Both the position numbers and the translations under genes were made by a program. The notes under the pieces were generated by a model, which did not search any database, had not been told where the DNA came from, and was given only the letters and a program-made list of their open reading frames with translations. Below are positions 42,833 to 64,000 of a stretch of 64,000 bases of DNA, piece by piece (position 1 is the stretch's first letter; every line of letters begins with the position of its first letter). This stretch comes from Candidatus Latescibacterota bacterium (GTDB lineage Bacteria; Latescibacterota; UBA2968; UBA8231), in the NCBI GenBank assembly GCA_965242865.1, contig CBDETK010000013.1, positions 1,952,001 through 2,016,000 on the forward strand. Direction: 5' to 3'.

Positions 42833-43744
42833 ATGAGAAAGTTCGGCTTTTTCGCCTTGTCTTGCGGGCTGGCGTACCTGCTGAGCACGGCCGCTTTTGC
42901 CCACGTGGGCGTGACCGTGTTCTATCCCCAAGTGCCCGACCCGGCAGCCATCACCATCGACGGCAATGACGACGACTGGGGTTGGTACGACCCGGCCCTC
43001 GCCCTCAATCAGCCCGATTTCTTCGACCGGGCCAGCGATTTCGTCGAGTTGTCGGACTACGATTTCACCATCCTCAACGGCTGGTCTGCGCCGCCGGACA
43101 ACAAGTGGTACGGCTTTGCGCGCTTCGTCGATGACACCCTCAAGTACGATTCGCCCGTCAAGGAGTGGTGGAAAGACGATTGCTTGCAGATAACCGTGGA
43201 CGCCGATCACCTCGGCGGCAACATCCTCGGTTCCGACCTAGAGCAGATCGCCAATGGCCAGCGCTGGCACGTGCGCATTTTCCCGCCCGCCGGCGAGTCC
43301 CTGCTGCCCAATCAAACCCCCTTCTTCTACAGCCAGCTAGAGTTCATCGACTCCGAAGAGCTGCTCTGGGGAGTCCAGCCGGAGTTTTTTGAGGCAGCGT
43401 GGACCGTCCTGCCAGCCGGCGCCGAAAACCTGACGGTTGGCCCGGTCACGTACACCTACGAGTGGCGGGGTGCTTTGTGGGATATCTGGGGCCTGAGCGA
43501 GAGCGAGAGCGTGCGGCACGTGTTCGCCGAGGACGACGTGATCCACCTCGGCTATCGCCCGCTCGACGCCGACCGCCCCGGCGGTGGGCGCAAGCATTCC
43601 ATGTACATCAACGACGGCAGCCAGTCGCAGGACGTCGACGCTTCGCAGATGCCCGACTTCTGGGCGCTGGCGGCCCCGGAGACCAACGTGGAAAACGAGA
43701 CTTGGGGCCACATCAAAAACAGCATGTCCCAACGCCTCAAGTAG
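42833..43744 (+). CDS. Secreted CBM9/DOMON-like putative sugar-binding protein
   Basis: AAGGAG RBS; signal ending AFA; ITIDGNDDDW, DDCLQITVDAD, YTYEW; C-terminal TWGHIK. Confidence 0.6.
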   Translation: MRKFGFFALSCGLAYLLSTAAFAHVGVTVFYPQVPDPAAITIDGNDDDWGWYDPALALNQPDFFDRASDFVELSDYDFTILNGWSAPPDNKWYGFARFVDDTLKYDSPVKEWWKDDCLQITVDADHLGGNILGSDLEQIANGQRWHVRIFPPAGESLLPNQTPFFYSQLEFIDSEELLWGVQPEFFEAAWTVLPAGAENLTVGPVTYTYEWRGALWDIWGLSESESVRHVFAEDDVIHLGYRPLDADRPGGGRKHSMYINDGSQSQDVDASQMPDFWALAAPETNVENETWGHIKNSMSQRLK

Positions 43745-43761
43745 GAGTTCGCAGCGCAATC

Positions 43762-43795
43762 ACGAGGGAGGGGGGCCGCGGCCCTTCTCCCTCGT
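43762..43795 (+). terminator. GC-rich hairpin, probable terminator
   Basis: ACGAGGGAGGGGGGCC-GC-GGCCCTTCTCCCTCGT followed by a T-rich tract. Confidence 0.6.
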
Positions 43796-43805
43796 TTCAT
43801 TTTCT

Positions 43806-45893
43806 ATGAAAAAACGCGATAAAACCCTAGCTGGCGCAGAAAGGGAGAACCGCTTCTACCCACTTTTTTCGCCTCCCCGGCGGTGGATGCGGTGGGCGAT
43901 GTTGGCTTATGTCGCGCTGATGTGCAGCCCTGGGGCGGCGCAAGAGTGGTGGCAGCTCGGTGGGCAGGGCGGCGTCTCGCCGCTGGACGTGGCGGATTTC
44001 AGCCTGATGATAGACGATGCAGCTGCTTCCCAAGCACTCCAGCCCTTTGAGCTCGACCCGCACGAAAACATCTTGCCGCAACTCGGCCCTTGGCAGCGCT
44101 GGCGCTTTCCCACGGACCCGCAATTCCGCCCCGGCCATCCGCGCTTCTGGACGGACATCAACCACAACACCCTATACAAGGCCACGGAAATTTTTCTCTT
44201 CGTCGATGGAGACTCGACCACGTACGTGGAGCGGCGAGATGGGGAGCAGATTTTCTATACCATAGACTTGGGCATCCCAGTGCCGGTAGAGCGCTTTGTC
44301 TTTTTCCCGCCCGAAGGCGTCAGCCCCGAAAGCGACGAGCCTTTCAGGCCCAATTACATCCTCAAGTCCTATAGTCTGACGGCCGACAAAGCCGAGACCG
44401 GCATTCTGCAAGAGGAGATAGAGCGCGGGTTCGTCTGGCGGGGCGACGGGCCGTGCTGTCCGCTGGCCATCCCCCTCGCCTACGAGGAGCGCAACACCGA
44501 CGCGGTGACCGAAATCGCGTTTTCCACCCAATACCTCCGCTTCTTCCGCCTCATCGCCATCCCCGACGGCTTTACCCTGTACGGCGACCCCATCGTCACG
44601 CGCTCGGCCTTTGCCGAGATGGAAATCTACGGCCGGGGTTTTGCTCCGCAGGCCATCTACGAGTCGCAGATCATAGATTTGGGGCGAGAGGTCAATTTTG
44701 GGCAGGTGCGCTTGGGAGTGAGCCAATGGCGCAAGGACGGAGAGCACCTGCTGCCATCCGACGGTCCAACCCGCGCCCAAGTGGAAATCCGCACCGGGCG
44801 CGACGACACCCCAACGGCTTATTTCGGCTTTGACGATCTGGGCGCCCATGTAGAGGTGACCAAGAAGCAGTGGGATCGGCTGATCCCCCTAGAGACGCGC
44901 GGCGCGACCGTAGCGGTCGGCTATCGCGGGCCGGTGGCCGAAGACCTGCAAAACTGGAGCTTCTGGTCCCTGCCGTTGGAGGGCTCGGGCCAGCACCCGC
45001 GCCTGCCGTGGGGTCGGTATTTCCAATTGCGCGTCCAGCTAGCAACGGACGCCCTGTGGGAATTTGCCCGCCTCGATTCCCTGCAAATCGAGATCGCACC
45101 CCTGCTGGCCGACCGGGTCGTCGGCGAGATCGTCCGCGCGGACCAACCCCATCCCCAAGGCGGGCAAGTGCGCGTCCCAGCGGGCGAGAAAACCCCGTTC
45201 ACGTACGACCTAGGCGTGGAATTTGCCCGTGCGGACCGCGTCGGCTGCGACGCCGTGCGCGTCTCGGCACCGGCGGAAGCCACGTTTCGCTATTTGGCGA
45301 TGGGCGACCCGCTCAGCGCGGTAGAGCCAGACAGCCTGCTGCGCGAAGCAAGCGGCTTTGTCGTATTCTTGCCCCGCCCCTTGCACCCAAGCGGCGATCA
45401 GCGGCTGCGCCTCGGCCTCGAAGCCGTGCTGTACGGCGAGGCCGGCGAATTTGGCGGCGAAGTCTTTAACCGCCGCGAGCCGAGCTTGTTGCAGCGCGTC
45501 GAGGGGGGCGACGTCAGCGCGGAGCTAGGCTCCAACCAGTTGCTCGTCGTGGCGTCTGCCGCTTCCAAGAGCGGGGTACTGGGCGATGTCGAGGCGGGTA
45601 GCGGCGCGTTTACCCCCCAAGGCGACGGCGTAAACGACCTGTTACCCATACGATACACCCTCTTCCGGGTGAGGCAGTCGTCCCAAGTGCAAGTCCGAGT
45701 GTACGCCCTCGACGGTCGGCCGGTGTGGCAGACGCAACCGAGTGTGCAGGGCGCGGGACGCCATGCGGTCTATTGGGATGGGCGCGATAGCACCGGCCAA
45801 AGAGTCCCTCCCGGCACCTATTTGGCGCGGGTGGAGGTGGAAACGGATAAGGGACGAGAGGTGCGGATGCGGCCGGTGGCCGTGGCGTACTAA
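43806..45893 (+). CDS. Secreted protein with C-terminal FlgD Ig-like domain (paralogue of 36015-37964)
   Basis: RTGRDDTP, NWSFWS, TPQGDGVND..WDGRDSTG..PPGTY; ends AVAY; alternative start at 43887. Confidence 0.75.
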   Translation: MKKRDKTLAGAERENRFYPLFSPPRRWMRWAMLAYVALMCSPGAAQEWWQLGGQGGVSPLDVADFSLMIDDAAASQALQPFELDPHENILPQLGPWQRWRFPTDPQFRPGHPRFWTDINHNTLYKATEIFLFVDGDSTTYVERRDGEQIFYTIDLGIPVPVERFVFFPPEGVSPESDEPFRPNYILKSYSLTADKAETGILQEEIERGFVWRGDGPCCPLAIPLAYEERNTDAVTEIAFSTQYLRFFRLIAIPDGFTLYGDPIVTRSAFAEMEIYGRGFAPQAIYESQIIDLGREVNFGQVRLGVSQWRKDGEHLLPSDGPTRAQVEIRTGRDDTPTAYFGFDDLGAHVEVTKKQWDRLIPLETRGATVAVGYRGPVAEDLQNWSFWSLPLEGSGQHPRLPWGRYFQLRVQLATDALWEFARLDSLQIEIAPLLADRVVGEIVRADQPHPQGGQVRVPAGEKTPFTYDLGVEFARADRVGCDAVRVSAPAEATFRYLAMGDPLSAVEPDSLLREASGFVVFLPRPLHPSGDQRLRLGLEAVLYGEAGEFGGEVFNRREPSLLQRVEGGDVSAELGSNQLLVVASAASKSGVLGDVEAGSGAFTPQGDGVNDLLPIRYTLFRVRQSSQVQVRVYALDGRPVWQTQPSVQGAGRHAVYWDGRDSTGQRVPPGTYLARVEVETDKGREVRMRPVAVAY

Positions 45894-45945
45894 CTAGAAG
45901 AGGTCAAAGATTGAGGGAATTATATGCGGCGAGGGCTTGGACCCT

Positions 45946-46290
45946 ATGAATGCCATTGAAGCCCATATCGACAACGCGACCATTGAGGCCATAGCCCAAC
46001 TGATCGTCGAACGCTTTGAGCCGGAACGAGTCATTCTCTTCGGCAGTCATGCCCGCGGAGAGGGGGGATCGCATAGCGATGTGGACCTGCTAGTCGTGCT
46101 CCGCACCGGCACAGAAAAGCTACCGCCCGGCAATCCAATCCGTCGAGCGATTGCCGAGTGTTTCGTCCTGCCCGTTGATGTACTGATCCGCTCGCCGGAA
46201 GTTCTCGCCGAACAGCGCAATGACCCATATTCCTTGATGCACCAAGTCTTGGAAGAAGGGAAGGTATTGTATGAGCGGCACGTTGCCTGA
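45946..46290 (+). CDS. Minimal nucleotidyltransferase (MNT) antitoxin
   Basis: ILFGSHARGE...SDVDLLVV...PVDVL...EGKVLYE. Confidence 0.9.
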   Translation: MNAIEAHIDNATIEAIAQLIVERFEPERVILFGSHARGEGGSHSDVDLLVVLRTGTEKLPPGNPIRRAIAECFVLPVDVLIRSPEVLAEQRNDPYSLMHQVLEEGKVLYERHVA

Positions 46291-46372
46291 ACGGGACTGG
46301 TTCGATAAGGCAAATCAAGATTTGGAGATGGCGCGTCGGGCGTTGGGTCCGAAAACACCTTCTCATTTATGA
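46271..46372 (+). pseudogene. Truncated HEPN toxin
   Basis: Overlaps the MNT end; MSGTLPERDWFDKANQDLEMARRAL stops after 33 aa. Confidence 0.75.
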
Positions 46373-46398
46373 CCTAATGAAAATGAAGAGAGGCTGTT

Positions 46399-47319
46399 TT
46401 GCGTAGAATCATACAGATCATCTCGGCAGGCGTCCACAAGGTGGGCGTCTTCCTTGTAGAAGAAGTCCGTACGATCTGGTATATTTTGTTTTTCGCCGCA
46501 GTAATCATAGTTTTCGGGTTTCTTTATACCTATCTGACTCCAATAGGGCACGGTATCGGGCAAAATCTCAAGCCGCTTTCTGACATTACACTTTGCACAG
46601 GCATATACTTCAGTATTGTCACGATCTCCTCGTTAGGGTACGGGGATATGCACCCGATGGGGTTCTCAAAAGCTCTCGCCTGTATAGAAGTCCTCTTAGG
46701 ACTCGTAGTCATAGGTATTATGATAGCTAAAGTTACTTCGCGACGTCCGTCATACCACGTTGAGCGTCTTTTCAGTTCTAATGCTCAAAAGCGACTTGAA
46801 AATTTTGCGACAGAATTTGCGGTATTTCACGGCGATTTTGAAACAATTATTCCGGATCTTCGGGACGCCTATCAGAGAATTCCTGGCCAAAGACCCTCCG
46901 AGGACAAGAGCGAATTGGTCGAACGTTTCCAAGAAATTATCACTGCATTCCAATCACAATGTACTGCGTTGCATACCTACTTTTCGGATGAGACTAGTCG
47001 GGGAAATTACTTCGAGATCGTCCCAGCTACTGCAACGGTGCAGGTAGGTAATGCCGTTTGCAACGCCTTCTTTATCCTTAGTCAACTTCTTGTAATCCTG
47101 CCGCCTCAAGCGGAAACTGAAGCTGAAGTTCTTGATAGACGCAGCAGACAGGGTATTTCAAGGGCAATTAACGCCCAGATAAAGGCATGTGATTTAGTTG
47201 ATCAATATGCGACTGATCAGGGTACACTTGATGTATTCCAGCGCATTCAAGATACTTGTAGGCAGTTGCCAGAAAGTTATTTCGCAGAAGTATCGCAACC
47301 CGACCAACTCCTACAATGA
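46399..47319 (+). CDS. Potassium-channel (Ion_trans_2) domain protein with helical C-terminal domain
   Basis: IYFSIVTISSLGYGDMHP filter motif between two TM helices; start uncertain (TTG). Confidence 0.8.
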   Translation: MRRIIQIISAGVHKVGVFLVEEVRTIWYILFFAAVIIVFGFLYTYLTPIGHGIGQNLKPLSDITLCTGIYFSIVTISSLGYGDMHPMGFSKALACIEVLLGLVVIGIMIAKVTSRRPSYHVERLFSSNAQKRLENFATEFAVFHGDFETIIPDLRDAYQRIPGQRPSEDKSELVERFQEIITAFQSQCTALHTYFSDETSRGNYFEIVPATATVQVGNAVCNAFFILSQLLVILPPQAETEAEVLDRRSRQGISRAINAQIKACDLVDQYATDQGTLDVFQRIQDTCRQLPESYFAEVSQPDQLLQ

Positions 47320-47355
47320 TCCTGACGAGGCACAATAACTTTAAGGGGGTGTAAG

Positions 47356-47745
47356 ATGAGCGAACAGCTTCTTCACGGGCACGAATTATCGCTAGAGCTG
47401 GAATGGATGAGGTGCTGGGGCGATGTCTGGTGCAAGCTCAACCTTGTAAACCTAAACCACGAGTATTTCGACAAGGATGTCTCTGGCGTCTATATAATTT
47501 GGCACGGAGGGCCAACCCCCAAGGTGGTGTACGTCGGTCAGGGAAATATCAAGGATCGCATAGCCAAACACCGGGAAGATCCAGAGATACAGCGGTATGA
47601 ACATCTGGAGCTTTATGTCACCTGGGCACCAGTACCTGAGGAATCCCAAGACGGTGCAGAAGCGTATTTGGCTGAGCAATGGTCCCCAAAAGTCGGCGAA
47701 CGCAATCCAGACGCCCTGCCCATAAAGGTAAACTCTCCGTGGTAG
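47356..47745 (+). CDS. Small GIY-YIG nuclease-like protein
   Basis: SGVYIIW...VVYVGQGNIKDRIAKH...AEAYL. Confidence 0.65.
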   Translation: MSEQLLHGHELSLELEWMRCWGDVWCKLNLVNLNHEYFDKDVSGVYIIWHGGPTPKVVYVGQGNIKDRIAKHREDPEIQRYEHLELYVTWAPVPEESQDGAEAYLAEQWSPKVGERNPDALPIKVNSPW

Positions 47746-56338: not shown

Positions 56339-57040
56339 CTAGCTGATACTGCTCAGGGCGGCGGCGAAGGAAAGCCAAATAATCATTATGAGACCAATCC
56401 CAACGTAGGCTTTGCTGCGATCAAACTGCCCCACAATAGACAGACCGAGACCAGTGACCACAATGCTCCAAACGACAAAGGGATCAATGAGGGACAATAA
56501 GTGCCCACTGAAGCTTCGGAGAGCCTCTTCGGAGAGGAACACCCCCAAGCCTATTTGCACTAGCGGTGTCTCTGTGGCCAATATTAGCAATGTCTTGATA
56601 ATCTGTTGGGGAATAGCGATCAACCCCGCATAGACTACTATGGTTAGGACTTGGCCGTAGGAGAGCAGGCCGCCTAGTAATTTGCCCACCAGTAGGCAAA
56701 GCGCAGAAAAAATAAAAACAAAAGTGAAAAGCACGATAGGTGTAACGATCAGAGTACTAACCCGCATGATGCCTTGGGTTTGGTATTGCTCCACGATCTT
56801 GCGCTCTTCGGCGGACATACCCTGCATCCGTTGCTGCATCCGTTCTTGGTTGAATTCAGTCGTAAAGGGCAGGATAAGTACCGCGGCAATCGTGGCAACT
56901 GCGACGTTCAGAATGGCAGGTACAAGCCAGTCGGCAGCACTGCGCTCGCGGGCGAGATCTTCAAAGGTCTCTCTCGGCGCGTAGAAGAGGCGAATCATGC
57001 GGTTGATAAGGCCGATTTCAGCCTGAGATGTGGGTTCCAT
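56339..57040 (-). CDS. Yip1 domain membrane protein
   Basis: LFYAPRETFE.L; five TM helices; LIDPFVVWS; GGAGG RBS. Confidence 0.75.
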   Translation of the reverse strand: MEPTSQAEIGLINRMIRLFYAPRETFEDLARERSAADWLVPAILNVAVATIAAVLILPFTTEFNQERMQQRMQGMSAEERKIVEQYQTQGIMRVSTLIVTPIVLFTFVFIFSALCLLVGKLLGGLLSYGQVLTIVVYAGLIAIPQQIIKTLLILATETPLVQIGLGVFLSEEALRSFSGHLLSLIDPFVVWSIVVTGLGLSIVGQFDRSKAYVGIGLIMIIWLSFAAALSSIS

Positions 57041-57132
57041 GAAACCTCCTTCTTATGAAAAGAGATGGATTTATATCTATAACATCGTGTTTACTAAGAA
57101 CGTGTTTGATATATAGCTAGCAGATGAACCGA

Positions 57133-57933
57133 TTAGAGCGGCGTTGGAATAAAGGCCGATAGTTCCAGAGCCAAAACCGACATATTGCGTAGAGCATGAT
57201 ACATAATAGAAGGGTAAAGAGAGCGCGTTCCCTGATACAAAAAAAACGAAAGACTCTGTGACATAAACGTAATGATAAATTCCCTTAGATGTTCTCCTGA
57301 AAACGGAGAGTAATGGTGATAGCTGAAGATAAAAGCGGTAATAGTGAAGCCGAGAACGAATCCCAATCGATTCCTTAAAGCAGGGAAAATCAGACCGGTA
57401 AAATATGCCTCCTCTATAATAGGGGCAATCAGTAAAGCACGAACTGAATGTGGAATGATAAGGAGAAATATAGTACGAAATTCGTCCCAGCCGGCTTCCT
57501 CAACCCAAGGTATTAGAATAGGGTTGGGGCTTATTAAGTGGATATCAATTCCCCGGAGCTTCATGTAAAGGAAAAAGACCAATATACTTACTCCGGATAT
57601 TAACAATAAAAAAATAAACGTTAAAACTAATTTTTTTGATTCCCTGGGAATTTGGAGGGACAATCCCAATGTTTGGGTGTTTAGAGCCTGTTTTTCTATC
57701 TTGGAAAATGCCACGACAATTAAAATAAGTAAGGCATAAGGAATAGTACATAATGATATGAAAAGGTAGTCGCTCAAAGCGAATAGATTAAGTATAGTAT
57801 CGACAGTATAGCGAAAGAAAAAGAACATAAAAATGGCGAGTAGAAAGGTAGAAAATATTCTACATCGTATATTTTCAAACTTTCTGGTAAATACGGGATG
57901 AATGTATTGGTCCATTGTGTGGATCTTTTTCAC
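57133..57933 (-). CDS. CPBP-family (Abi/CAAX) intramembrane metalloprotease
   Basis: APIIEEAYF, FSYHH, SLYPSIMYHALRN motifs; multiple TM helices. Confidence 0.85.
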   Translation of the reverse strand: MKKIHTMDQYIHPVFTRKFENIRCRIFSTFLLAIFMFFFFRYTVDTILNLFALSDYLFISLCTIPYALLILIVVAFSKIEKQALNTQTLGLSLQIPRESKKLVLTFIFLLLISGVSILVFFLYMKLRGIDIHLISPNPILIPWVEEAGWDEFRTIFLLIIPHSVRALLIAPIIEEAYFTGLIFPALRNRLGFVLGFTITAFIFSYHHYSPFSGEHLREFIITFMSQSLSFFLYQGTRSLYPSIMYHALRNMSVLALELSAFIPTPL

Positions 57934-57961
57934 GAGTACCCCTGCTTATTCCATTAGTTGT

Positions 57962-58020
57962 TGGTGAATCTTTTGAGCTACCAGCCTCGACAAGACGACT
58001 GGTAGCTCATCAATTCACCA
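57962..58020 (-). terminator. Long stem-loop downstream of the precursor gene (attenuator or mRNA stabiliser)
   Basis: TGGTGAAT..TGAGCTACCAG pairs with CTGGTAGCTCA..ATTCACCA; no clear U-tract. Confidence 0.6.
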
Positions 58021-58086
58021 TGTAGAGGTTGTGGGTTTCATCTAGGTTGGCTTCTTACAAACTTTGCTCGTTGTTTTTCCGTCTTC

Positions 58087-58359
58087 TTACGGATTGCGAG
58101 CGTACGATGCTTCTCGGTTTTGTCTTGAGGATTCTAGGTTCCCGTAAAGGGCCATCGCAGCAGCAGTGATGGCGGCGTCAGCCGCTAACGCAATGCCTAT
58201 CAGTGCCCAAGGAAGTGCTCCGCCCTTGATATCCTGAGCCTCAGAAGGCGTAATAGGCTTTGAAACGATCTCACTGTTGCTGGGTGCGATACTATAGGCG
58301 CACAAGCCCAAGGCTGTCGCCAGAGCTGTTACACCTTTAGTTTTGATAAGTTTAGTCAT
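58087..58359 (-). CDS. Putative bacteriocin/RiPP precursor with double-glycine leader
   Basis: AAAGGAG RBS; ITPSEAQDIKGG matches the LSxxELxxIxGG consensus; 43-aa core ALPWALIGIALAADAAITAAAMALYGNLESSRQNREASYARNP; adjacent to a C39 peptidase. Confidence 0.75.
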   Translation of the reverse strand: MTKLIKTKGVTALATALGLCAYSIAPSNSEIVSKPITPSEAQDIKGGALPWALIGIALAADAAITAAAMALYGNLESSRQNREASYARNP

Positions 58360-58417
58360 GATGTTCTCCTTTCTTTAGGAAGAAGATGACAACCCTTACC
58401 TCCACATGGTGAATATT

Positions 58418-58963
58418 TTATTTTTTTGTCAATATCAAAGTCTCTCCTTTCCATATACGATTGAATGCCCCTTTTCCAATTCTGAGCCTGCCGATGGCTG
58501 GATCCCGCAAGATGACCTCACCGTGTTCGTTGATCTGGTCTAATACCGCAAAGTGGCCATCCTCAACAAAGACTACCGCAGGAAGCGGTTTGCTCTGTAG
58601 GTCATCTATATTTAGCCTCCAAGTTTCAGCATGTACTCCTTGACTTTCAGCGTATTCCATCAACTCGAATAGGGAAGAACCTGTCTCGTCTAATTTAATC
58701 ATGTCTTCAATATCTGTAAGCTCGCGGTTTATACCTAGGCTATCCAAGACCATTTTAAGAGCTACAGGACCACAATTCATCTTACGTGTTTGTAGAATGA
58801 CTCCTTCTGTTCCCTTGTATTCTGCACCTTTCAACCATGCCGCCAAGTTACGGTATATGATTTCACTCGTAATGGATCCGGCGACTAATTGCAAGGTAGC
58901 AGCAAAAAAAATGACTAATACTATTGCTGCTCCAATCGTTAATTTACTTTTCCAAGATGTCAT
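58418..58963 (-). CDS. Stand-alone C39 cysteine peptidase with N-terminal signal/anchor
   Basis: QTRKMNCGPVALKMV (Q, C), GHFAVL (H), RDPAIG (D); hydrophobic N-terminus; no ABC domains. Confidence 0.9.
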   Translation of the reverse strand: MTSWKSKLTIGAAIVLVIFFAATLQLVAGSITSEIIYRNLAAWLKGAEYKGTEGVILQTRKMNCGPVALKMVLDSLGINRELTDIEDMIKLDETGSSLFELMEYAESQGVHAETWRLNIDDLQSKPLPAVVFVEDGHFAVLDQINEHGEVILRDPAIGRLRIGKGAFNRIWKGETLILTKK

Positions 58964-58991
58964 AATTGAAGGTATCTTTTGTGATAGTACA

Positions 58992-61505
58992 CTATAGGGC
59001 TGGTTCTTGAACAGCCTTTATTTTTTTTTCGACTCGGTCAGCGTAGCTATACATATCTATTTCGACGAAAATTTTTGCCGCCATCGTCCACAAGGCGACA
59101 GCTTTTGCTTTTGACTCTTTTTCGGCAGCCACATCTCCCATACCTGTATAGGCAAGTCCCCGTCCCAGTTCGTCTCCGATCCTTTTGCATATAGACAAGG
59201 CTCTACTGTAACAAGATTCGGCTTCACTCCACTGTCCTCTAAGCTGATGTATCTCGCCCAGACTGGAAAGCCCGTAGGCGGTGCCCTTTTCGTCATTCTC
59301 GGCTTCGTATATCCCCAGTGCAGTCTTCTGCTCTTGGTGCGCGTCTTCATATTGTCCGCATTGGATATATACGAGACTTAAAGTAGTTCGGGCTGCTGCA
59401 ATAGTTTGCTGATTAGGCGAGTCTTGAGTGAGACGTAGGTAATTGCATAAGAATTCCTTGGCTTTATCAAATTTTTTACTATGAGCGTACAATTTTCCAA
59501 GCGATAAATAGCACTCAGTCACATCGGACGACATACCTATACGTTCAAATAGACTTATAGAGTGATGCAGGTAGGATTCTGCCAGAGGAAAATCTCCACG
59601 ATAGAAATGTACATTCGCCAGTACCTTATATGAGTACGCTTTTCCCTTTTCATCCGCCAAATTTTGATTAGCCTCTAAGGCAGCTTTGCCGTATTCTAGT
59701 GCTTTTTCCATATTTCCCATTAGAAGGTGTATAGAAGAAGACAATCCATAATGCAATGCCAATCCCCCTTTTCTATCCATCTTTTTATCTATGTCAATAG
59801 CCTGTTCCAGTAAAGTATGTGCTTCGTGGATACGGCCTTGAATTTTTCTTAAATTTGCAAGTGAATTGTACTGGTTAGCAATTCCCTCGGAGTCTCCGAT
59901 TTCTTTGTAAATAGCTAAAGATTCCTCGTAAAGTTTCTCTGCTGAATCCAAGTCGTCTTTTAGAAGATGCACAGTACCCAAGTTGCTGGTAACCAAGGCA
60001 TAATCTTCTCGACAATTTACTTTTTTGTGAAGACTCTGTCCTTTAATATAAAAATCCGCAGCTTCGGCGAGATTTCCTTGTAGCTGCGCGATAAATCCTT
60101 TGCAGGTATATCCTACGGCTAGCTTCCTTGTACTTTCATCATCCTCAGCTTGTGAAAAAATTGATATGGCCTCATCATAACATTGATCTGCCCTGTCTAA
60201 TTCGCCTTTCAGCTCATAAACTTTGCCTTCGGAGATCAGTATGTTAGCCAATCCTGTAGCTGTACTACCCCGAAGACGATTCGCTTCTTTTGCCAATTCG
60301 ATTTGAGATAAGGCGGATTCTAGACGACCGTTCTGCCAGTGCTCGTCAGCAGAGGCTAAAATGATTTCCCATTCTTCGGGATCACCTTGCTGGTCAACTC
60401 GTTCAAATACCTCGCTTTCAGCAGGGCTAAATTTGCAATGAGTAGGAAGCTCGGTATCTAGGTTGAGCTGTGGGAGCACATCCAAGATCTCTTGATACTC
60501 TTTTCTGTCTGCTGCAGAGATGGTTCGGTAGATATGGTCAAATTCAATCAGACTGTCTATAACTGACTCCTCTGGAAGAAAAGGATTAGGCCACAGATGC
60601 GCCCACCAGAAGTGGATCAGACGCACCAAGGGATCGCTATGTTTGCGGGCTATGTACTCAACCGCGGCGTACCGCTTTGTGCTCTCGGCTTTTGCCTTCT
60701 CAGGATCGGAGAAATTATGATGATGGTACAGGTGATAAGAAGAGGCCTGGACACTGATAAATTGTCCACCCGCCGCCCCTAGGCGGTAGCCAAGTTCCCA
60801 CCCTTCACAGAAAGGTATGGCATCATCGAATCCCCCTACTTTTTCTAGCAGCTTTAACGGTATGGCCATATTGTGAGGGTATAATCCAATCCAGCCTAGG
60901 GCCGGTTCTGCGATGGTTTCGTAAAGATCGTGAAATTCCCTCTGCATAGTACGGACTTCTTCAAACGGATAGCCTCCTTCCACTGCTTTTTCGGTAATAC
61001 TCTCGAACTCATTGCACACCATACTCTCTGTGACAATCATCTTATCTCGGTGTAGCTCTAAGCACCGACGCAGTGAATAAGGCAGTGAGGTATCGGCGAG
61101 TGAACCTGTCTGAGGATTTTGGAAATACTCTAGGTCGGGAAGGACATATTGATAGCCACATAATACTGACTTCTGACCATTCTCTTTATAGGCTTCTAAG
61201 TAGCACTGGAGTAGTTCCGGGGCTGGTAATGCATCTCCATCCAAGAAAACGACCAACGAGCCTAGTGCCCGTTCAACCCCTCTATTCCGTGCTCGGCATC
61301 GGCCCTGATTCACTGCAAAACACTCAACTTTGAGGTTATGCATCCTTCGCGATTCGAGCATTGCTCCGGTCCCGTCTGTAGAACCGTCATCAACTACTAC
61401 TATTTCAAAACGATCGCTTGGAATATTCTGATTTTCTAAGCCACTTAACACGAGACGGAGACGGTCTTTCTGGTTATACGTGGCTATGATTACACTTATA
61501 TCCAT
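58992..61505 (-). CDS. Family 2 glycosyltransferase with long C-terminal TPR array
   Basis: MDISVIIATYNQ, VVDDGSTDGT, ARNRG, FLDGD; about ten TPR-like units; ATG at 61505 overlaps the upstream TAA (TAATG). Confidence 0.9.
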   Translation of the reverse strand: MDISVIIATYNQKDRLRLVLSGLENQNIPSDRFEIVVVDDGSTDGTGAMLESRRMHNLKVECFAVNQGRCRARNRGVERALGSLVVFLDGDALPAPELLQCYLEAYKENGQKSVLCGYQYVLPDLEYFQNPQTGSLADTSLPYSLRRCLELHRDKMIVTESMVCNEFESITEKAVEGGYPFEEVRTMQREFHDLYETIAEPALGWIGLYPHNMAIPLKLLEKVGGFDDAIPFCEGWELGYRLGAAGGQFISVQASSYHLYHHHNFSDPEKAKAESTKRYAAVEYIARKHSDPLVRLIHFWWAHLWPNPFLPEESVIDSLIEFDHIYRTISAADRKEYQEILDVLPQLNLDTELPTHCKFSPAESEVFERVDQQGDPEEWEIILASADEHWQNGRLESALSQIELAKEANRLRGSTATGLANILISEGKVYELKGELDRADQCYDEAISIFSQAEDDESTRKLAVGYTCKGFIAQLQGNLAEAADFYIKGQSLHKKVNCREDYALVTSNLGTVHLLKDDLDSAEKLYEESLAIYKEIGDSEGIANQYNSLANLRKIQGRIHEAHTLLEQAIDIDKKMDRKGGLALHYGLSSSIHLLMGNMEKALEYGKAALEANQNLADEKGKAYSYKVLANVHFYRGDFPLAESYLHHSISLFERIGMSSDVTECYLSLGKLYAHSKKFDKAKEFLCNYLRLTQDSPNQQTIAAARTTLSLVYIQCGQYEDAHQEQKTALGIYEAENDEKGTAYGLSSLGEIHQLRGQWSEAESCYSRALSICKRIGDELGRGLAYTGMGDVAAEKESKAKAVALWTMAAKIFVEIDMYSYADRVEKKIKAVQEPAL

Positions 61506-63973
61506 TATAGAAACTCCACTCTCAGGTGATATTGGCACTTCAAATTTGAGATATGCTCCCATCCATCCTTACCTTCTATTAGGAAATAAGGTAGCGTCTT
61601 AGCAGAGTTGGAAAACATGAGTCGTTGGTTATCTAAGTGGCCAAAATAGTAGGAATCAAAAGATCGAGTATTTCGCTTTATGTATGTTTTTAGCTTAGGA
61701 TCTTCGACATTGTATTCGGTTATAGAAACTTCGCCGATAGCCATACTGAGGAATTCGACGGGTATCCAGCCCGCTTCTTCTAGATAAATTTCGGCCCACG
61801 TGTGGCCTACTATAGGCTCGTCTATACTTCTGTATTCGTACACCTGTTCAGAAATTGGGAATCCCAACAAGGTTCCACATCTCTCGCGAGCAGGAATACC
61901 GACCATTCTACATAGAGCTATAAAGGTTCTGGCAAAGTGAATACAATTGCCACCGATGTTATTCAGCAAAACAGCCGAACTATCAGCTAGACCCATCGCA
62001 GGTATCTTAGTCTTTCTGAATTTTTTAGTTCTGATTAACTTGCTGTAGAAGGCCCAGGCCAGTTCTTTTTTGTCGCAGGGCGCGGATGCTTCGAGTATCT
62101 CGGAAAGCACTTGCTCCAGTTCTGGCAGTTTGCCTAAAATTTCGTCGGTATATAAATATTTCGATCTCTCCCAGTCCGAAAGGATGTACTCGCCTCTACC
62201 TTTAGCATTATACTCACTGACCTCAAGTTCACAAGTATATGAAAAATTTGCCGAATTTGAGTTTACAGTGAAAGGATATGCATAGAAGAAGCCAAACTTG
62301 CTGCGTAAACAGTGTCTCATATTCTCTGGAAAACAGTCGATTAGACTAACTGCCTTTTGTTCTTTTGTCTCCAAAGGGTATGGCATAAAAACCCTTAACT
62401 GTTGATCTGGTTTTTCAGTAAAATCTATGTCGTAAGAGTAGGTTATTCTGTAACGTTGGGTATGATATTTTGAACGTACGTTGCCTATTTCGTCTATATC
62501 GAAAAAGACACGTCGTCTTTGATCACAGGCCTTGTACTCAGCCTCAAAAAATCGAGCTTCTCTTTCGTAGAGCCAATTCCAAGAGTCTATTTTGTCGAAG
62601 AAGTACTGATTGCCCTGTCGCCAGTGAGGTATCCCTTTTTTAATACCTTGCCGTAGCATTTTATGTAGTGATTCCATTGATAGAGTGGAAGGAGTAGTGC
62701 CATCGAGTTGCTGTAAGAATTCGTTTTCACTTACTAGAAATTTAGGATCGAAACTGAGTGCCGTGTACCGGTTCGTAAAATAATCATCTACCCAGTCTGC
62801 AACGACATCTCTTGCACACCATCGATTCAATAAATTGGCAAGAGCTTCCAATTGAATCTCCATCTTATCCCAGACACCGAGAGTTTTCCTTAGTATTTGT
62901 GTAATATTGTGATAACTAAATCTATCTGGATCTATTTTTAGGCCCAAATTAACCTCTTCGAGTCTATCGAGATGAAGCTCCTGATCTAAAGTGGTTGCTA
63001 TACCGATAGGCAAAACTCCATGAAGCAAAGCACTATATAGGGTCTCTATATCTAAATCTCCAACTATTACATGTATCCTTTCCCATGGCGGCTCTCTATA
63101 GATTCCATTCTCTACATGGCTGTCAGGCCGCTTTACTCCTCTGGTAGATTCTACTAGTAAACGATAAGGGAGTTCCACTCCAGATGCATCCTGTCTCAGT
63201 ATATCTTCTTTTAGGAGATTTTGGGGATCTTTTATATAGATGACAGGGAATGATCCATCCCGTTTGCGAAGCACCTTTCGTTTGCCTCTCTTTTTATCGG
63301 TAGTCGGCAAGAGGGGCCCTATGTAGTGGAACCCGTCAGCACCGAAATCTAGCGTGGGATATAGTTCGGGTATATCGGCGATTAGATAGTACTTATTCTT
63401 CTTCTTGATTTCGCCAGCTTTGTTTTTTAAGTACTCTGCAAACGTGTCTCTTGATGATAGAACAGATAGAGTCTGAAGAGGGATACGATAGCCTAGGCGA
63501 TCGTATCCTTGAATTACTTCAGCTTCGTCAATACCTTCCAAGTGTGCTGCAATTGAAGCAGTTGGTTTCAAGGAATGTATAATTAGATCAGGCTTATACT
63601 CCTCAATCAAAGACCGTTCGGATTCTACGCAAGAGTCGATCCATTCCGTATCACATGCTCTATAGTCCAATAGCTCAATCTGGTCTCTGTGAATCTCTAG
63701 CGGCAGCGTTTTAACACTGCATATTTCTTCTCCTTTTTGGAAACATTGCTCCGCCCAAGGTCCATCTCCTGCCAGCCGAACCTCATAGCCTCGGCGACGT
63801 AATTGTCGGGCAATCTCACAAGCTCGCCTAGTATGAACAGCACTACAACCATGGAACAGGACCATAATAGACAATGCGCTACGGTCTAATATACTGGTTT
63901 CCGATGCTCTTCTGAGGCTACTGCTCCACCACAATAACCTTGACACTAATTTTTCTCTGATAGATGTACGCAA
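61505..63973 (-). CDS. Fusion of a GT-B (GT1/GT28-like) glycosyltransferase domain and a transglutaminase-like domain
   Basis: HTRRACEIARQLRRRGYEVRLAG, HYIGPL, HGVLPIGI...DQ; GNCIHFARTFIALCRMVGIPAR, HTWAEIY...GWIPVE. The frame is open to the window edge, so the start (TTG with GAGG upstream) is uncertain. Confidence 0.8.
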   Translation of the reverse strand: MRTSIREKLVSRLLWWSSSLRRASETSILDRSALSIMVLFHGCSAVHTRRACEIARQLRRRGYEVRLAGDGPWAEQCFQKGEEICSVKTLPLEIHRDQIELLDYRACDTEWIDSCVESERSLIEEYKPDLIIHSLKPTASIAAHLEGIDEAEVIQGYDRLGYRIPLQTLSVLSSRDTFAEYLKNKAGEIKKKNKYYLIADIPELYPTLDFGADGFHYIGPLLPTTDKKRGKRKVLRKRDGSFPVIYIKDPQNLLKEDILRQDASGVELPYRLLVESTRGVKRPDSHVENGIYREPPWERIHVIVGDLDIETLYSALLHGVLPIGIATTLDQELHLDRLEEVNLGLKIDPDRFSYHNITQILRKTLGVWDKMEIQLEALANLLNRWCARDVVADWVDDYFTNRYTALSFDPKFLVSENEFLQQLDGTTPSTLSMESLHKMLRQGIKKGIPHWRQGNQYFFDKIDSWNWLYEREARFFEAEYKACDQRRRVFFDIDEIGNVRSKYHTQRYRITYSYDIDFTEKPDQQLRVFMPYPLETKEQKAVSLIDCFPENMRHCLRSKFGFFYAYPFTVNSNSANFSYTCELEVSEYNAKGRGEYILSDWERSKYLYTDEILGKLPELEQVLSEILEASAPCDKKELAWAFYSKLIRTKKFRKTKIPAMGLADSSAVLLNNIGGNCIHFARTFIALCRMVGIPARERCGTLLGFPISEQVYEYRSIDEPIVGHTWAEIYLEEAGWIPVEFLSMAIGEVSITEYNVEDPKLKTYIKRNTRSFDSYYFGHLDNQRLMFSNSAKTLPYFLIEGKDGWEHISNLKCQYHLRVEFL

Positions 63974-64000
63974 TTGAAATATACCTCTGGTTGAATGATC

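Follow-up and report, generated by a model that had tools for sequence, protein, structure and literature searches.

At one end of a 64,000-nucleotide stretch of Candidatus Latescibacterota DNA, six minus-strand genes make up an island of low GC content (Table 1). The whole stretch is called the window here; it comprises positions 1,952,001 to 2,016,000 of contig CBDETK010000013.1 (G000:C13:1952001-2016000), from a 6.0-Mb assembly of 13 contigs (GCA_965242865.1). The island encodes a glycosyltransferase (GT)-B-like protein fused to a transglutaminase (TGase) domain, a GT2-type enzyme fused to tetratricopeptide repeats (TPRs), a stand-alone C39 peptidase, a small precursor peptide with a double-glycine leader, a CPBP/Rce1-like protein and a Yip1-family membrane protein. 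The explanation favoured below, with a confidence that stays just short of even, is that the island matures one small, tailored ribosomal peptide and is built from two joined modules: the C39-peptide-CPBP genes (module A) and the GT pair (module B).

Organisation of the island

All six open reading frames (ORFs; 56339-63973) are intact and have ribosome-binding sites. An earlier inspection of the letters (the sequence-only reading) had described six co-oriented genes in an AT-richer island, and both the ORFs and the composition are borne out. In 1-kb intervals from 57000-57999 to 63000-63999, which cover the first five genes, GC content is 0.385-0.478; the flanks are at about 0.58-0.65 and the contig as a whole at 0.606. 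The interval containing most of the Yip1 gene has an intermediate value (0.554), so that this gene belongs to the low-GC block only loosely. The island lies between housekeeping genes: a DEAD-box helicase gene and the glutamyl-tRNA synthetase gene flank one end, gyrB/gyrA-type topoisomerase genes the opposite end. Neither ABC transporter nor redoxin genes were found in the island or its flanks. The island C39 is the sole C39 match in the 6.0-Mb assembly, and no peptidase-containing ABC transporter (PCAT) or accessory export protein was found genome-wide. Sequencing runs containing island DNA are labelled sponge metagenome; there are no RNA runs among those listed.

Table 1. Features of the island in window coordinates (aa: amino acids; values after family names are E-values).
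Feature	Position	Strand	Description
GT-B-like/transglutaminase fusion	61505..63973	-	822 aa from TTG 63973; Transglut_core 4.4e-13
GT2-TPR fusion	58992..61562	-	856 aa; Glycos_transf_2 1.1e-24, TPR_12 7.4e-52
Stand-alone C39 peptidase	58418..58963	-	181 aa; Peptidase_C39 1.8e-27
Precursor peptide gene	58087..58359	-	90 aa; no family
Precursor leader, residues 1-47	58219..58359	-	basic N-terminus, signal-like segment, double-glycine end
Precursor core, 43 aa + stop	58087..58218	-	Ala-rich helix, polar tail LYGNLESSRQNREASYARNP
RNA hairpin between peptide and CPBP genes	57963..58020	-	folding versus shuffles
CPBP/Rce1-like protein	57133..57933	-	266 aa; Rce1-like 6.2e-13
Yip1/YknW-family membrane protein	56339..57040	-	233 aa; Yip1 1.4e-17

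The precursor peptide

The peptide gene has a strong ribosome-binding site (AAAGGAG) and lies next to the C39 gene, as the sequence-only reading had noticed. The product begins with MTKLIKTK, followed by a moderately hydrophobic, signal-like segment (residues 10-24) that had escaped attention in that reading. The leader ends in I(-12)TPSE(-8)A(-7)QDI(-4)KGG, the GG closing at residue 47. As defined in an excerpt of PMC10885120, the double-glycine motif consists of GG, GA or GS, hydrophobic residues at -4, -7 and -12 and an acidic residue at -8; the window leader has all of these. GA and GS, which count as accepted variants in the same excerpt (PMC10885120), take the place of GG in three relatives from loci without GTs (GT-less relatives).

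The core opens with an Ala-rich, hydrophobic helix (residues 48-66) that includes PW and a nearly invariant Asp61, and closes with the polar tail LYGNLESSRQNREASYARNP. Cys is absent from the 43 core residues, and Cys20 sits in the leader; the earlier claim of a Cys-free core and a missing PCAT thus agrees with both the sequence check and the genome-wide C39 search. A lipoprotein lipobox at Cys20 was considered and rejected, since this residue is not kept in the GT-less relatives. Hydropathy and charge give two hydrophobic segments separated by a net negative loop and followed by a net positive tail.

Neither the window peptide nor the peptides of related loci are described by a Pfam or NCBIfam model. 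Database searching yielded 10 matching protein clusters out of 5.8 billion, among 35 candidates. Aligning 15 relatives shows stronger conservation of the leader than of the core in 14/14 comparisons with the window peptide, and mean pairwise identity is 0.66 for leaders and 0.40 for cores. For the GT-linked relatives, leader identity is 77-96% and core identity 26-81%. This pattern is typical of precursor peptides, as judged from the alignment.

The C-terminal end also varies with context. A Tyr after the helix and a C-terminal NP are found in six distinct GT-linked loci (the window, L014, L015, L022, L020 and L052) and in P0009, while the three GT-less relatives have Phe at the Tyr position and different C-terminal ends. 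That these tail features track with the presence of GTs is suggestive. In the ESM Atlas, the best score for the peptide was 0.87; a 'putative bacteriocin' cluster scored 0.77 only and is a lead at most. With its conserved Asp, the helix looks membrane-embedded, and an antimicrobial function of the mature peptide may be regarded as a candidate only.

A strong RNA hairpin follows the peptide gene (minimum free energy -46.5 kcal/mol, z = -5.52, equalled by 0/200 shuffles in a fold of 57940-58095). An intrinsic terminator at the 3' side of the gene was rejected, as the hairpin is present and the T run is missing; for the same reason, a simple terminator scan omitted it.

The C39 peptidase, CPBP and Yip1 proteins

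By hydropathy, the C39 protein has one N-terminal transmembrane (TM) helix (residues 10-28). Its catalytic set (Q58, C64, H137 and D154) is invariant in six aligned orthologues. Among proteins of solved structure, the closest in sequence are LahT150 (6mpz), PCAT1 and the peptidase domain of ComA, all double-glycine proteases. By these sequence features, the window C39 is active-looking. Weak NCBIfam matches were obtained for C39_FapD (1.4e-08; 34 versus a cut-off of 330 bits) and pilus_FilB (1.5e-07; 31 versus 475 bits). Since the leader N-terminus is signal-like and the C39 protein membrane-anchored, peptide processing is probably extracytoplasmic.

The CPBP protein, with its Rce1-like Pfam match above cut-off, has four hydrophobic segments at or above the Kyte-Doolittle threshold. 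It was checked for motifs 1 (EExxxR), 2 (FxxxH) and 3 (HxxxN/D). All 9 homologues share E174, E175, H246 and N250; the window protein has the motif-2 His, which one relative (L016) lacks. In every related locus with sequence, the CPBP gene adjoins the peptide gene. A role as a C-terminal (CTERM) sorting protease of the MrtS/MrtJ type was rejected on account of weak, sub-cut-off matches and of a peptide without passenger domain.

The Yip1 gene has its own ribosome-binding site (AAGGAGG). The Pfam domain scores 64.5 bits, above the cut-off of 28.6, and YknW_fam (NCBIfam NF052650) 71.8 bits, under the curated cut-off of 110; the protein is thus a Yip1-domain protein that falls short of YknW membership. 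Its gene comes after the CPBP gene in 4/4 clusters of the host's genus, and Yip1 genes are also present in distant loci with an anchored C39 (see below).

Module A in related genomes

Within the host's GTDB family, peptide carriers account for 8/76 genomes including that of the window, with 3/30 others in its own genus and 4/8 in a second genus. In the own genus, G047, G049 and the metagenome-assembled genome (MAG) behind L022 carry all six genes in unchanged order, and the four genomes keep this order at 70-96% protein identity. The G047 and G049 clusters are flanked by gyrB and the helicase gene; the L022 contig is short and includes the gyrB side only. Between the Yip1 and helicase genes, the two genus relatives in L014 (12413-15454) and L015 (4919-7976) have TonB-dependent-receptor-like and TPR genes that are absent there in the window.

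The second genus has two arrangements. G022 and the metagenome contig L052 carry the GT-B/TGase and GT2-TPR genes as well as those for C39, peptide and CPBP, with identities of about 56%. G019, G020 and G023 have a CPBP-C39-peptide-CPBP cluster of normal GC content beside XRE-type helix-turn-helix (HTH) genes, with no GTs; one of the two flanking CPBPs has fully canonical motifs. The C39, peptide and CPBP genes are adjacent in 9/9 distinct related loci with sequence (window, G047, G049, L022, G022, L052, G019, G020 and G023).

A further locus in the genus member G052 (L019; G052:C1:2992000-3011900) has a low-GC CPBP gene of the island type (71% identity) beside a stop-interrupted peptide remnant, with neither GTs nor C39. 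On the upstream side, the locus encodes a membrane protein of 174 aa, an HlyD-like protein and a Yip1-like one; a gene for a MacB-like permease lies downstream, a few kb from the CPBP gene. It may be a resistance-only remnant.

A C39-alignment scan with one genome per species gave 31 loci; L039-L051 were set aside (partial or weak C39 matches; archaeal, candidate phyla radiation and other MAGs). Six loci, labelled Latescibacterota, Poribacteria, Planctomycetota, Gemmatimonadota or uncultured bacterium, belong to this family. Outside the host family, 12 loci (L025, L027, L028, L030-L038) in MAGs labelled Bacteroidota/Bacteroidetes, Ignavibacteria/Ignavibacterium or uncultured bacterium encode a TM-anchored C39 of 37-49% identity. 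In 12/12 of these, the downstream small ORF combines a textbook signal peptide with a leader of the form L(-12)..E(-8)[LM](-7)..[VI](-4).G[GA]. The register is that of the window leader, with one offset by a residue, and the hydrophobic cores are Cys- and/or Gly-rich. In L034 (7549-8030), the double-glycine-leader peptide is split over two frames, which a frameshift or an assembly error may explain.

In the scanned distant loci, a gene for a TM-anchored, TlpA-like redoxin overlaps the C39 start, and Yip1 and MauE/DoxX genes lie downstream (L032, L036). L032 also has an ABC ATPase gene, and some of the cassettes have ABC-2 transporter genes. No GT, CPBP or window-type peptide was found in the distant loci by tblastn. 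For this anchored C39 clade, Pfam and NCBIfam give only general Peptidase_C39 or far-below-cut-off family matches. The extracytoplasmic redoxins, Cys-rich cores and anchors with the N-terminus inside together indicate, as predicted from sequence, that the clade works outside the cytoplasm on Sec-routed peptides.

The GT-B-like/transglutaminase and GT2-TPR enzymes

The N-terminal 35 residues of the GT-B/TGase protein (M..SIREKL..) are conserved in homologues, which supports the start at TTG 63973; ATG 63868 was rejected as the start for the same reason. The GT2-TPR protein starts either at ATG 61505 (MDISVII, as in homologues; more likely) or at ATG 61562. The stop of the first gene and the start of the second overlap as TAATG in the former case and the genes overlap by 58 nt in the latter, so that the translational coupling noted earlier is seen either way. 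Neither protein has a hydrophobic segment.

The claim of a GT-B/transglutaminase fusion holds for one half and needs qualification for the other. The TGase part is identified both by Pfam and by structural modelling. The GT-B part has no Pfam call of its own in the window protein; its assignment as a GT1-type GT-B rests on homologues, as EryCIII-like_C scores above cut-off in 5/8 representative fusions and the GT-B half is homologous to GT1 enzymes of ~400 aa. A profile comparison with PDB sequences gave TgpA only and no GT-B confirmation. The donor loop reads VGDLDIET in the window protein and its close orthologues, GGxGT in distant fusions and HGGNGT in stand-alone GT1s. The Gly-rich diphosphate loop of the GT1 type is thus missing; the DQ motif and an N-terminal His are kept. 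By these motifs, the GT-B half may be a pseudo-enzyme or the user of an unusual donor.

A full-length model of the GT-B/TGase protein (10 sequences) had a mean predicted local distance difference test (pLDDT) score of 41.7 and was replaced by a model of the C-terminal module (62 sequences). This transglutaminase-fold module of ~390 aa reached a pLDDT of 95.2. Its best PDB match is 3isr (Foldseek 1.4e-11, VIA Z 15.0 over 242 aa), followed by TgpA (Z 10.6), Streptococcus pyogenes TglA (Z 9.7) and eukaryotic transglutaminases (Z 7-8). In the 62 sequences, His290 is invariant and Cys243 nearly invariant, and an acidic residue is found in GWIPVEF. The module is, by sequence and model, a member of the transglutaminase-like superfamily; a role as protease, transamidase or acyltransferase is putative.

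In the GT2 (GT-A) domain, the motifs DDGS.DGT and LDGDA (DxD) are invariant in six orthologues, and the domain is joined to a TPR array of ~420 aa. The sequence-only reading had likened this protein to SunS. No such kinship emerged from the PDB and NCBIfam comparison: neither SunS nor a sublancin glycosyltransferase appears by name among 57 PDB sequence matches, in a searched copy whose inclusion of them is unconfirmed, and no NCBIfam glycocin model matches. The PDB matches of the TPR part include the TPR chains of OGT. A complex prediction for GT2-TPR and the precursor scored 0.01, which speaks neither for nor against binding.

Distribution and contexts of the GT pair

At E<=1e-5, 13 clusters with the GT-B/TGase fusion were obtained from 8000 scored candidates of a 90%-identity collection. 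An exhaustive HMMER search of 1.84 billion representatives gave 2334 matches at E<=0.001, of which 45 were at E<=1e-30; about ten full-length fusions are among the 150 matches listed. Other listed matches, about 730-750 aa long, align with the C-terminal ~400 aa only. Thirteen such proteins were scanned: P0049, P0055, P0058, P0070 and P0095 combine GT2 with the TGase module, P0056 has GT2, TGase and GT-B, P0029 is an EryCIII-like/TGase fusion with a longer N-terminus, P0064 joins GT4 to a TGase module detected only with a profile built for this analysis, and P0042-P0046 have TGase only. Since the module is fused to GT2, GT4 and GT2 plus GT-B in these proteins, it is a habitual partner of glycosyltransferases. 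For the fusion itself, Pfam and NCBIfam give only general Transglut_core or far-below-cut-off family matches.

Within the window's GT subfamily (>50% identity), the pair is directly upstream of, and co-oriented with, the C39-peptide-CPBP genes in 6/6 loci; these come from two genera (about 56% protein identity) and different chromosomal sites. Further away, a metagenome scan gave 19 loci with full-length fusions at 31-39% identity; L072-L074 were set aside (TGase-only matches, 26% identity). GT2 directly follows the fusion in 15/15 metagenome loci with downstream sequence, the TPR protein being a separate next ORF. By tblastn, 0/19 distant loci have a C39, CPBP or window-type peptide. In 10/12 distant loci with at least 400 bp upstream, an ORF of 70-116 aa ends <=400 bp from the fusion gene; its N-terminus is basic and hydrophobic, and its C-terminal part is acidic or contains Cys. 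In the exceptions, L066 and L070, the pair lies beside ABC-2 permeases and redoxins, and L066 also has a Cys-rich secreted peptide. Further genes nearby encode Reg_prop/Y_Y_Y sigma-54 activators and a histidine kinase rather than polysaccharide functions. In L053-L065 and L071, the order is Reg_prop/Y_Y_Y sigma-54 activator, ~80-aa peptide, GT-B/TGase, GT2, TPR protein and histidine kinase; the signal part of these peptides has an AxA-type end, and their C-terminus is acidic and rich in Pro (..PP.PE).

The sequence-only reading had expected GT homologues to keep company with C39 and precursor genes rather than to lie in, for example, polysaccharide loci. The first part fails for the distant loci (0/19); the second stands, as 10/12 adjoin other small peptides. 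Its notion that all six genes form a single system did not survive the comparison: C39-peptide-CPBP occurs without GTs, and the GT pair without C39.

The picture is extended by the host family, where the fusion occurs in 33/76 genomes with up to 7 matches per genome. The window genome has three more fusion loci (L075-L077), each with an adjacent GT2, and L077 with a separate TPR ORF and a sigma-54 activator. Small Cys-rich peptides, ABC-2 permeases or FG-GAP proteins with type IX secretion system (T9SS) C-terminal domains are encoded there as well. The small peptides of L075-L077 and of the metagenome loci share a leader-like ..GLALGW..S....G....LG+.E before unrelated cores. A leader hidden Markov model (HMM) built from them matches 13 ORFs in the window genome at E<=4.3e-5 (next match 0.025); 3/13 are training sequences. 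Of these ORFs, which were called by hand and not by a gene finder, 9/13 lie within 20 kb and 12/13 within 30 kb of two paralogous fusion genes. In five other genomes of the genus, 21/31 leader matches lie within 20 kb of a fusion gene by coordinate comparison; the chance expectation is a few per cent (3-6 loci in 5-6.6 Mb). The island's own peptide does not match this HMM. The GT pair is thus a lineage-expanded family found beside small leader-bearing peptides and not in polysaccharide loci.

Two large loci (G000:C13:371000-411000 and 3155000-3195000; parts are L077 and L076) are centred on paralogous GT-B/TGase and GT2 genes. Each has 5-7 small ORFs with the shared leader and hypervariable Cys-rich cores, alternating with FG-GAP/T9SS C-terminal-domain proteins of ~710-770 aa. 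This looks like a multi-precursor peptide system.

Genomic surroundings

A further low-GC patch in the window (45937-47745; 0.455-0.489) contains genes for a Polbeta-type nucleotidyltransferase, an Ion_trans_2 channel and a family-less protein of 129 aa. About 4-10 kb past the window end lies a restriction-modification cluster (L001:5316-11071). It encodes a Type ISP-like enzyme (N6_Mtase + Type_ISP_C) and a protein in which an N6_N4 methylase is joined to a BanI-like fragment; the cluster overlaps another low-GC patch (0.39-0.45 in 1-kb intervals at about 70 and 72-73 kb in window numbering). The window also encodes a 769-aa protein (43584-45893) with FlgD_ig/CHU_C type IX secretion C-terminal domains. 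The host thus has T9SS cargo, consistent with a diderm of the Fibrobacterota-Chlorobiota-Bacteroidota (FCB) group.

A proposed maturation pathway and its alternatives

Gene content, motifs and associations are observations; every biochemical step in the following scheme is inferred. Apart from the 90-aa peptide, all island products are enzymes or polytopic membrane proteins, and a small peptide with a hydrophobic leader is the common denominator of all three GT-pair contexts, as judged from the sequences. According to the favoured scheme, the translationally coupled, cytoplasmic GT-B-like/TGase and GT2-TPR enzymes would tailor the peptide, the C-terminal tail with its Tyr, Ser and Asn being the most likely site, either before export or on a tail that remains cytoplasmic. 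The TPR array would hold the peptide, GT2 being the likely active sugar transferase, and the Cys-His module of the TGase fold may carry out a second, acyl-transfer or proteolytic step. The signal-like N-terminus of the leader would insert the precursor into or across the inner membrane by the Sec route. The anchored C39, with its catalytic domain predicted to face outward, would then cut after Gly47, as its motif and family suggest, and free a 43-aa hydrophobic peptide with a polar tail. By analogy, CPBP and Yip1 might serve in producer protection or further processing. The product would be a membrane-active, bacteriocin-like peptide made by a glycocin-like logic without being a glycocin.

Several points weigh against this scheme. 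The GTs are dispensable for the core system, because three related genomes run C39-peptide-CPBP without them. The link between tail and GTs comes down to 7 versus 3 peptides, roughly one evolutionary contrast, with the context of P0009 not visible. The sole glycosyltransferase Pfam match of the window GT-B/TGase protein is Glyco_trans_4_4 at E=0.005, under the cut-off, and its GT-B half may be inactive because the Gly-rich loop is replaced and a Pfam GT-B call is lacking. In all peptide-adjacent CPBP copies, the motif-1 Arg is a Thr. The membrane topology is based on hydropathy and charge alone. The order of events is assumed, since the GTs are cytoplasmic and the cleavage site and C39 domain are predicted outside. 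Glycosylation and isopeptide formation of the peptide are likewise inferred from the gene products, and no outer-membrane export route is encoded at the island.

The dispensability of the GTs leads to an alternative in which the two modules are unrelated neighbours: an unmodified double-glycine peptide system, and a GT pair that modifies a secreted or T9SS protein, a lipid or a peptide encoded elsewhere. The GT-less clusters of G019, G020 and G023, the occurrence of C39 and CPBP in 0/19 distant GT loci and the degenerate donor loop of the window subfamily would all fit; so would the FG-GAP/T9SS cargo proteins in the paralogous loci of the same genome, which are possible real GT substrates there. 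What makes this account rather unlikely is the constancy of the pair's position, directly upstream and co-oriented in 6/6 subfamily loci at different chromosomal sites in two genera, together with the peptide being the only island product that is neither enzyme nor membrane protein and with the small leader-bearing peptides common to all three contexts. Decay or loss of function is very improbable: low GC content, patchy distribution and the G052 locus, which keeps only CPBP, a Yip1-like gene and a stop-interrupted peptide remnant, would fit horizontally acquired DNA without joint function, but none of the six ORFs is interrupted and each has a ribosome-binding site, the catalytic residues are kept, and four genomes of the genus retain the order, their proteins being 70-96% identical.

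A different question is whether the peptide leaves the membrane at all. MroQ, acting with AgrD, is a CPBP protein that functions as a peptide maturation protease, and the CPBP of the island could similarly be a maturation protease rather than an immunity protein, the peptide being membrane-resident or a signal and not an antimicrobial. The core may simply remain in the membrane because its TM-like helix has a conserved Asp. The precursor would then form a helical hairpin whose outward loop is cut by C39, while the Asp helix stays and its cytoplasmic tail can be reached by the GTs. The two hydrophobic segments with negative loop and positive tail, the nearly invariant Asp61 within the helix and the lack of an encoded exporter or outer-membrane route are in keeping with this. 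The same is true of the XRE-type HTH genes at GT-less loci, the sigma-54 activators and histidine kinase at distant GT pairs, and the two CPBPs, one fully canonical, flanking C39-peptide in the GT-less loci. However, a core that diverges fast relative to its leader and a patchy, island-like distribution (8/76 genomes) are more typical of conflict systems. The Yip1/YknW, ABC-2 and MacB-like neighbours in relatives recall resistance to peptide toxins (an excerpt of PMC4887032), and the Gly/Cys-rich cores of the distant anchored-C39 loci resemble those of class II bacteriocins or microcins. On balance, it is unlikely that the peptide stays in the membrane or acts as a signal, and the maturation of a tailored, bacteriocin-like peptide by two joined modules is tentatively preferred.

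Novelty and significance

No description of the gene combination, of a Sec-signal-plus-double-glycine leader with an anchored C39, or of a peptide-acting GT/transglutaminase fusion was found in the main texts of open-licence PMC and bioRxiv articles. That an ABC-independent maturation route by Sec and an anchored C39 and a new set of peptide-tailoring enzymes are jointly new is on balance doubtful, though worth considering. If so, there would be a family of double-glycine-leader peptides, in Latescibacterota, Poribacteria, Bacteroidota and Ignavibacteria MAGs, that are Sec-routed and matured outside by an anchored stand-alone C39. Double-glycine peptides would then not need C39-ABC export, a Sec signal with an outward anchored C39 being a second route, and genome mining keyed on PCATs or short leaders would miss such peptides. 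Similarly, a TGase-(pseudo-)GT-B protein with GT2 and TPR, working on many precursors that have hypervariable cores behind a shared leader, would amount to a new class akin to RiPPs (peptides that are made on ribosomes and then modified post-translationally). It would give a first functional context, peptide tailoring, to recurrent TGase-glycosyltransferase fusions present in several copies per genome in an uncultured lineage. The island itself would yield a glycosylated and/or transamidated, Cys-free, membrane-active peptide.

Comparison with known systems

Glycocins (sublancin with SunA/SunS/SunT/BdbA-B, glycocin F, enterocin F4-9) have a double-glycine-leader peptide encoded beside a GT2, and a C39 domain removes the leader, according to excerpts of PMC10885120, PMC12457901 and PMC8620827. 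The island likewise encodes a double-glycine-leader peptide together with a GT2 and a C39. In contrast to glycocins, whose cores form nested disulfides in a helix-loop-helix fold, its core has no Cys, and it has neither thiol-disulfide oxidoreductases nor a SunT-type C39-ABC exporter. Its C39 is membrane-anchored and stand-alone, the leader has 47 residues and a signal-like start, the GT2 bears a long TPR array, and a second, GT-B-like/TGase enzyme is present. By these sequence features, the island product is not a glycocin.

Abi(CPBP)-type immunity proteins accompany class II bacteriocins. The island resembles class II bacteriocins and microcins in its GG/GA/GS leader with hydrophobic residues at -4, -7 and -12 and Glu at -8, its C39 near LahT150, PCAT1 and ComA, its hydrophobic Ala/Gly-rich core and the CPBP gene directly downstream. 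Class II leaders have about 15-30 aa, lack a Sec signal and are processed during ABC export, whereas the island leader has 47 aa and a signal-like segment with no PCAT; moreover, its C39 is predicted to face outward, and tailoring enzymes are present. Only by analogy can CPBP and Yip1 be called candidate immunity genes. The Bacillus YknWXYZ system confers resistance to the SDP peptide toxin (an excerpt of PMC4887032). The island similarly has a Yip1-family protein beside a peptide system, and in G052 a Yip1-like gene occurs with HlyD-like, MacB-like and island-type CPBP genes. Unlike YknWXYZ, the island protein has a sub-cut-off YknW_fam score and no ABC or membrane fusion protein partners in the window, and its protective role is putative.

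FapD (of the Fap amyloid system), FilB and the PA2778 family are, like the island enzyme, small non-transporter C39 proteins with an N-terminal targeting or anchor segment. The island C39 differs from FapD and FilB in scoring far under their cut-offs, in the lack of amyloid or pilus genes and in its presumed substrate, the neighbouring double-glycine-leader peptide. OGT is a TPR-guided polypeptide glycosyltransferase with a GT-B catalytic domain; the Gtf enzymes for serine-rich-repeat adhesins and HMW1C glycosylate Sec substrates in the cytoplasm and thus set a precedent for sugar addition before Sec export. Their substrates are large proteins. In the island, the TPR array sits on a GT-A (GT2) domain, and homology is seen in the TPR repeats only. 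Transglutaminase-like leader proteases exist in RiPP pathways, for example the B proteases of lasso peptides (an excerpt of PMC10885120). The TGase-fold module of the island is similar in fold and Cys/His residues to the putative cysteine protease 3isr, TgpA and TglA; it differs from these in being fused to glycosyltransferase domains.

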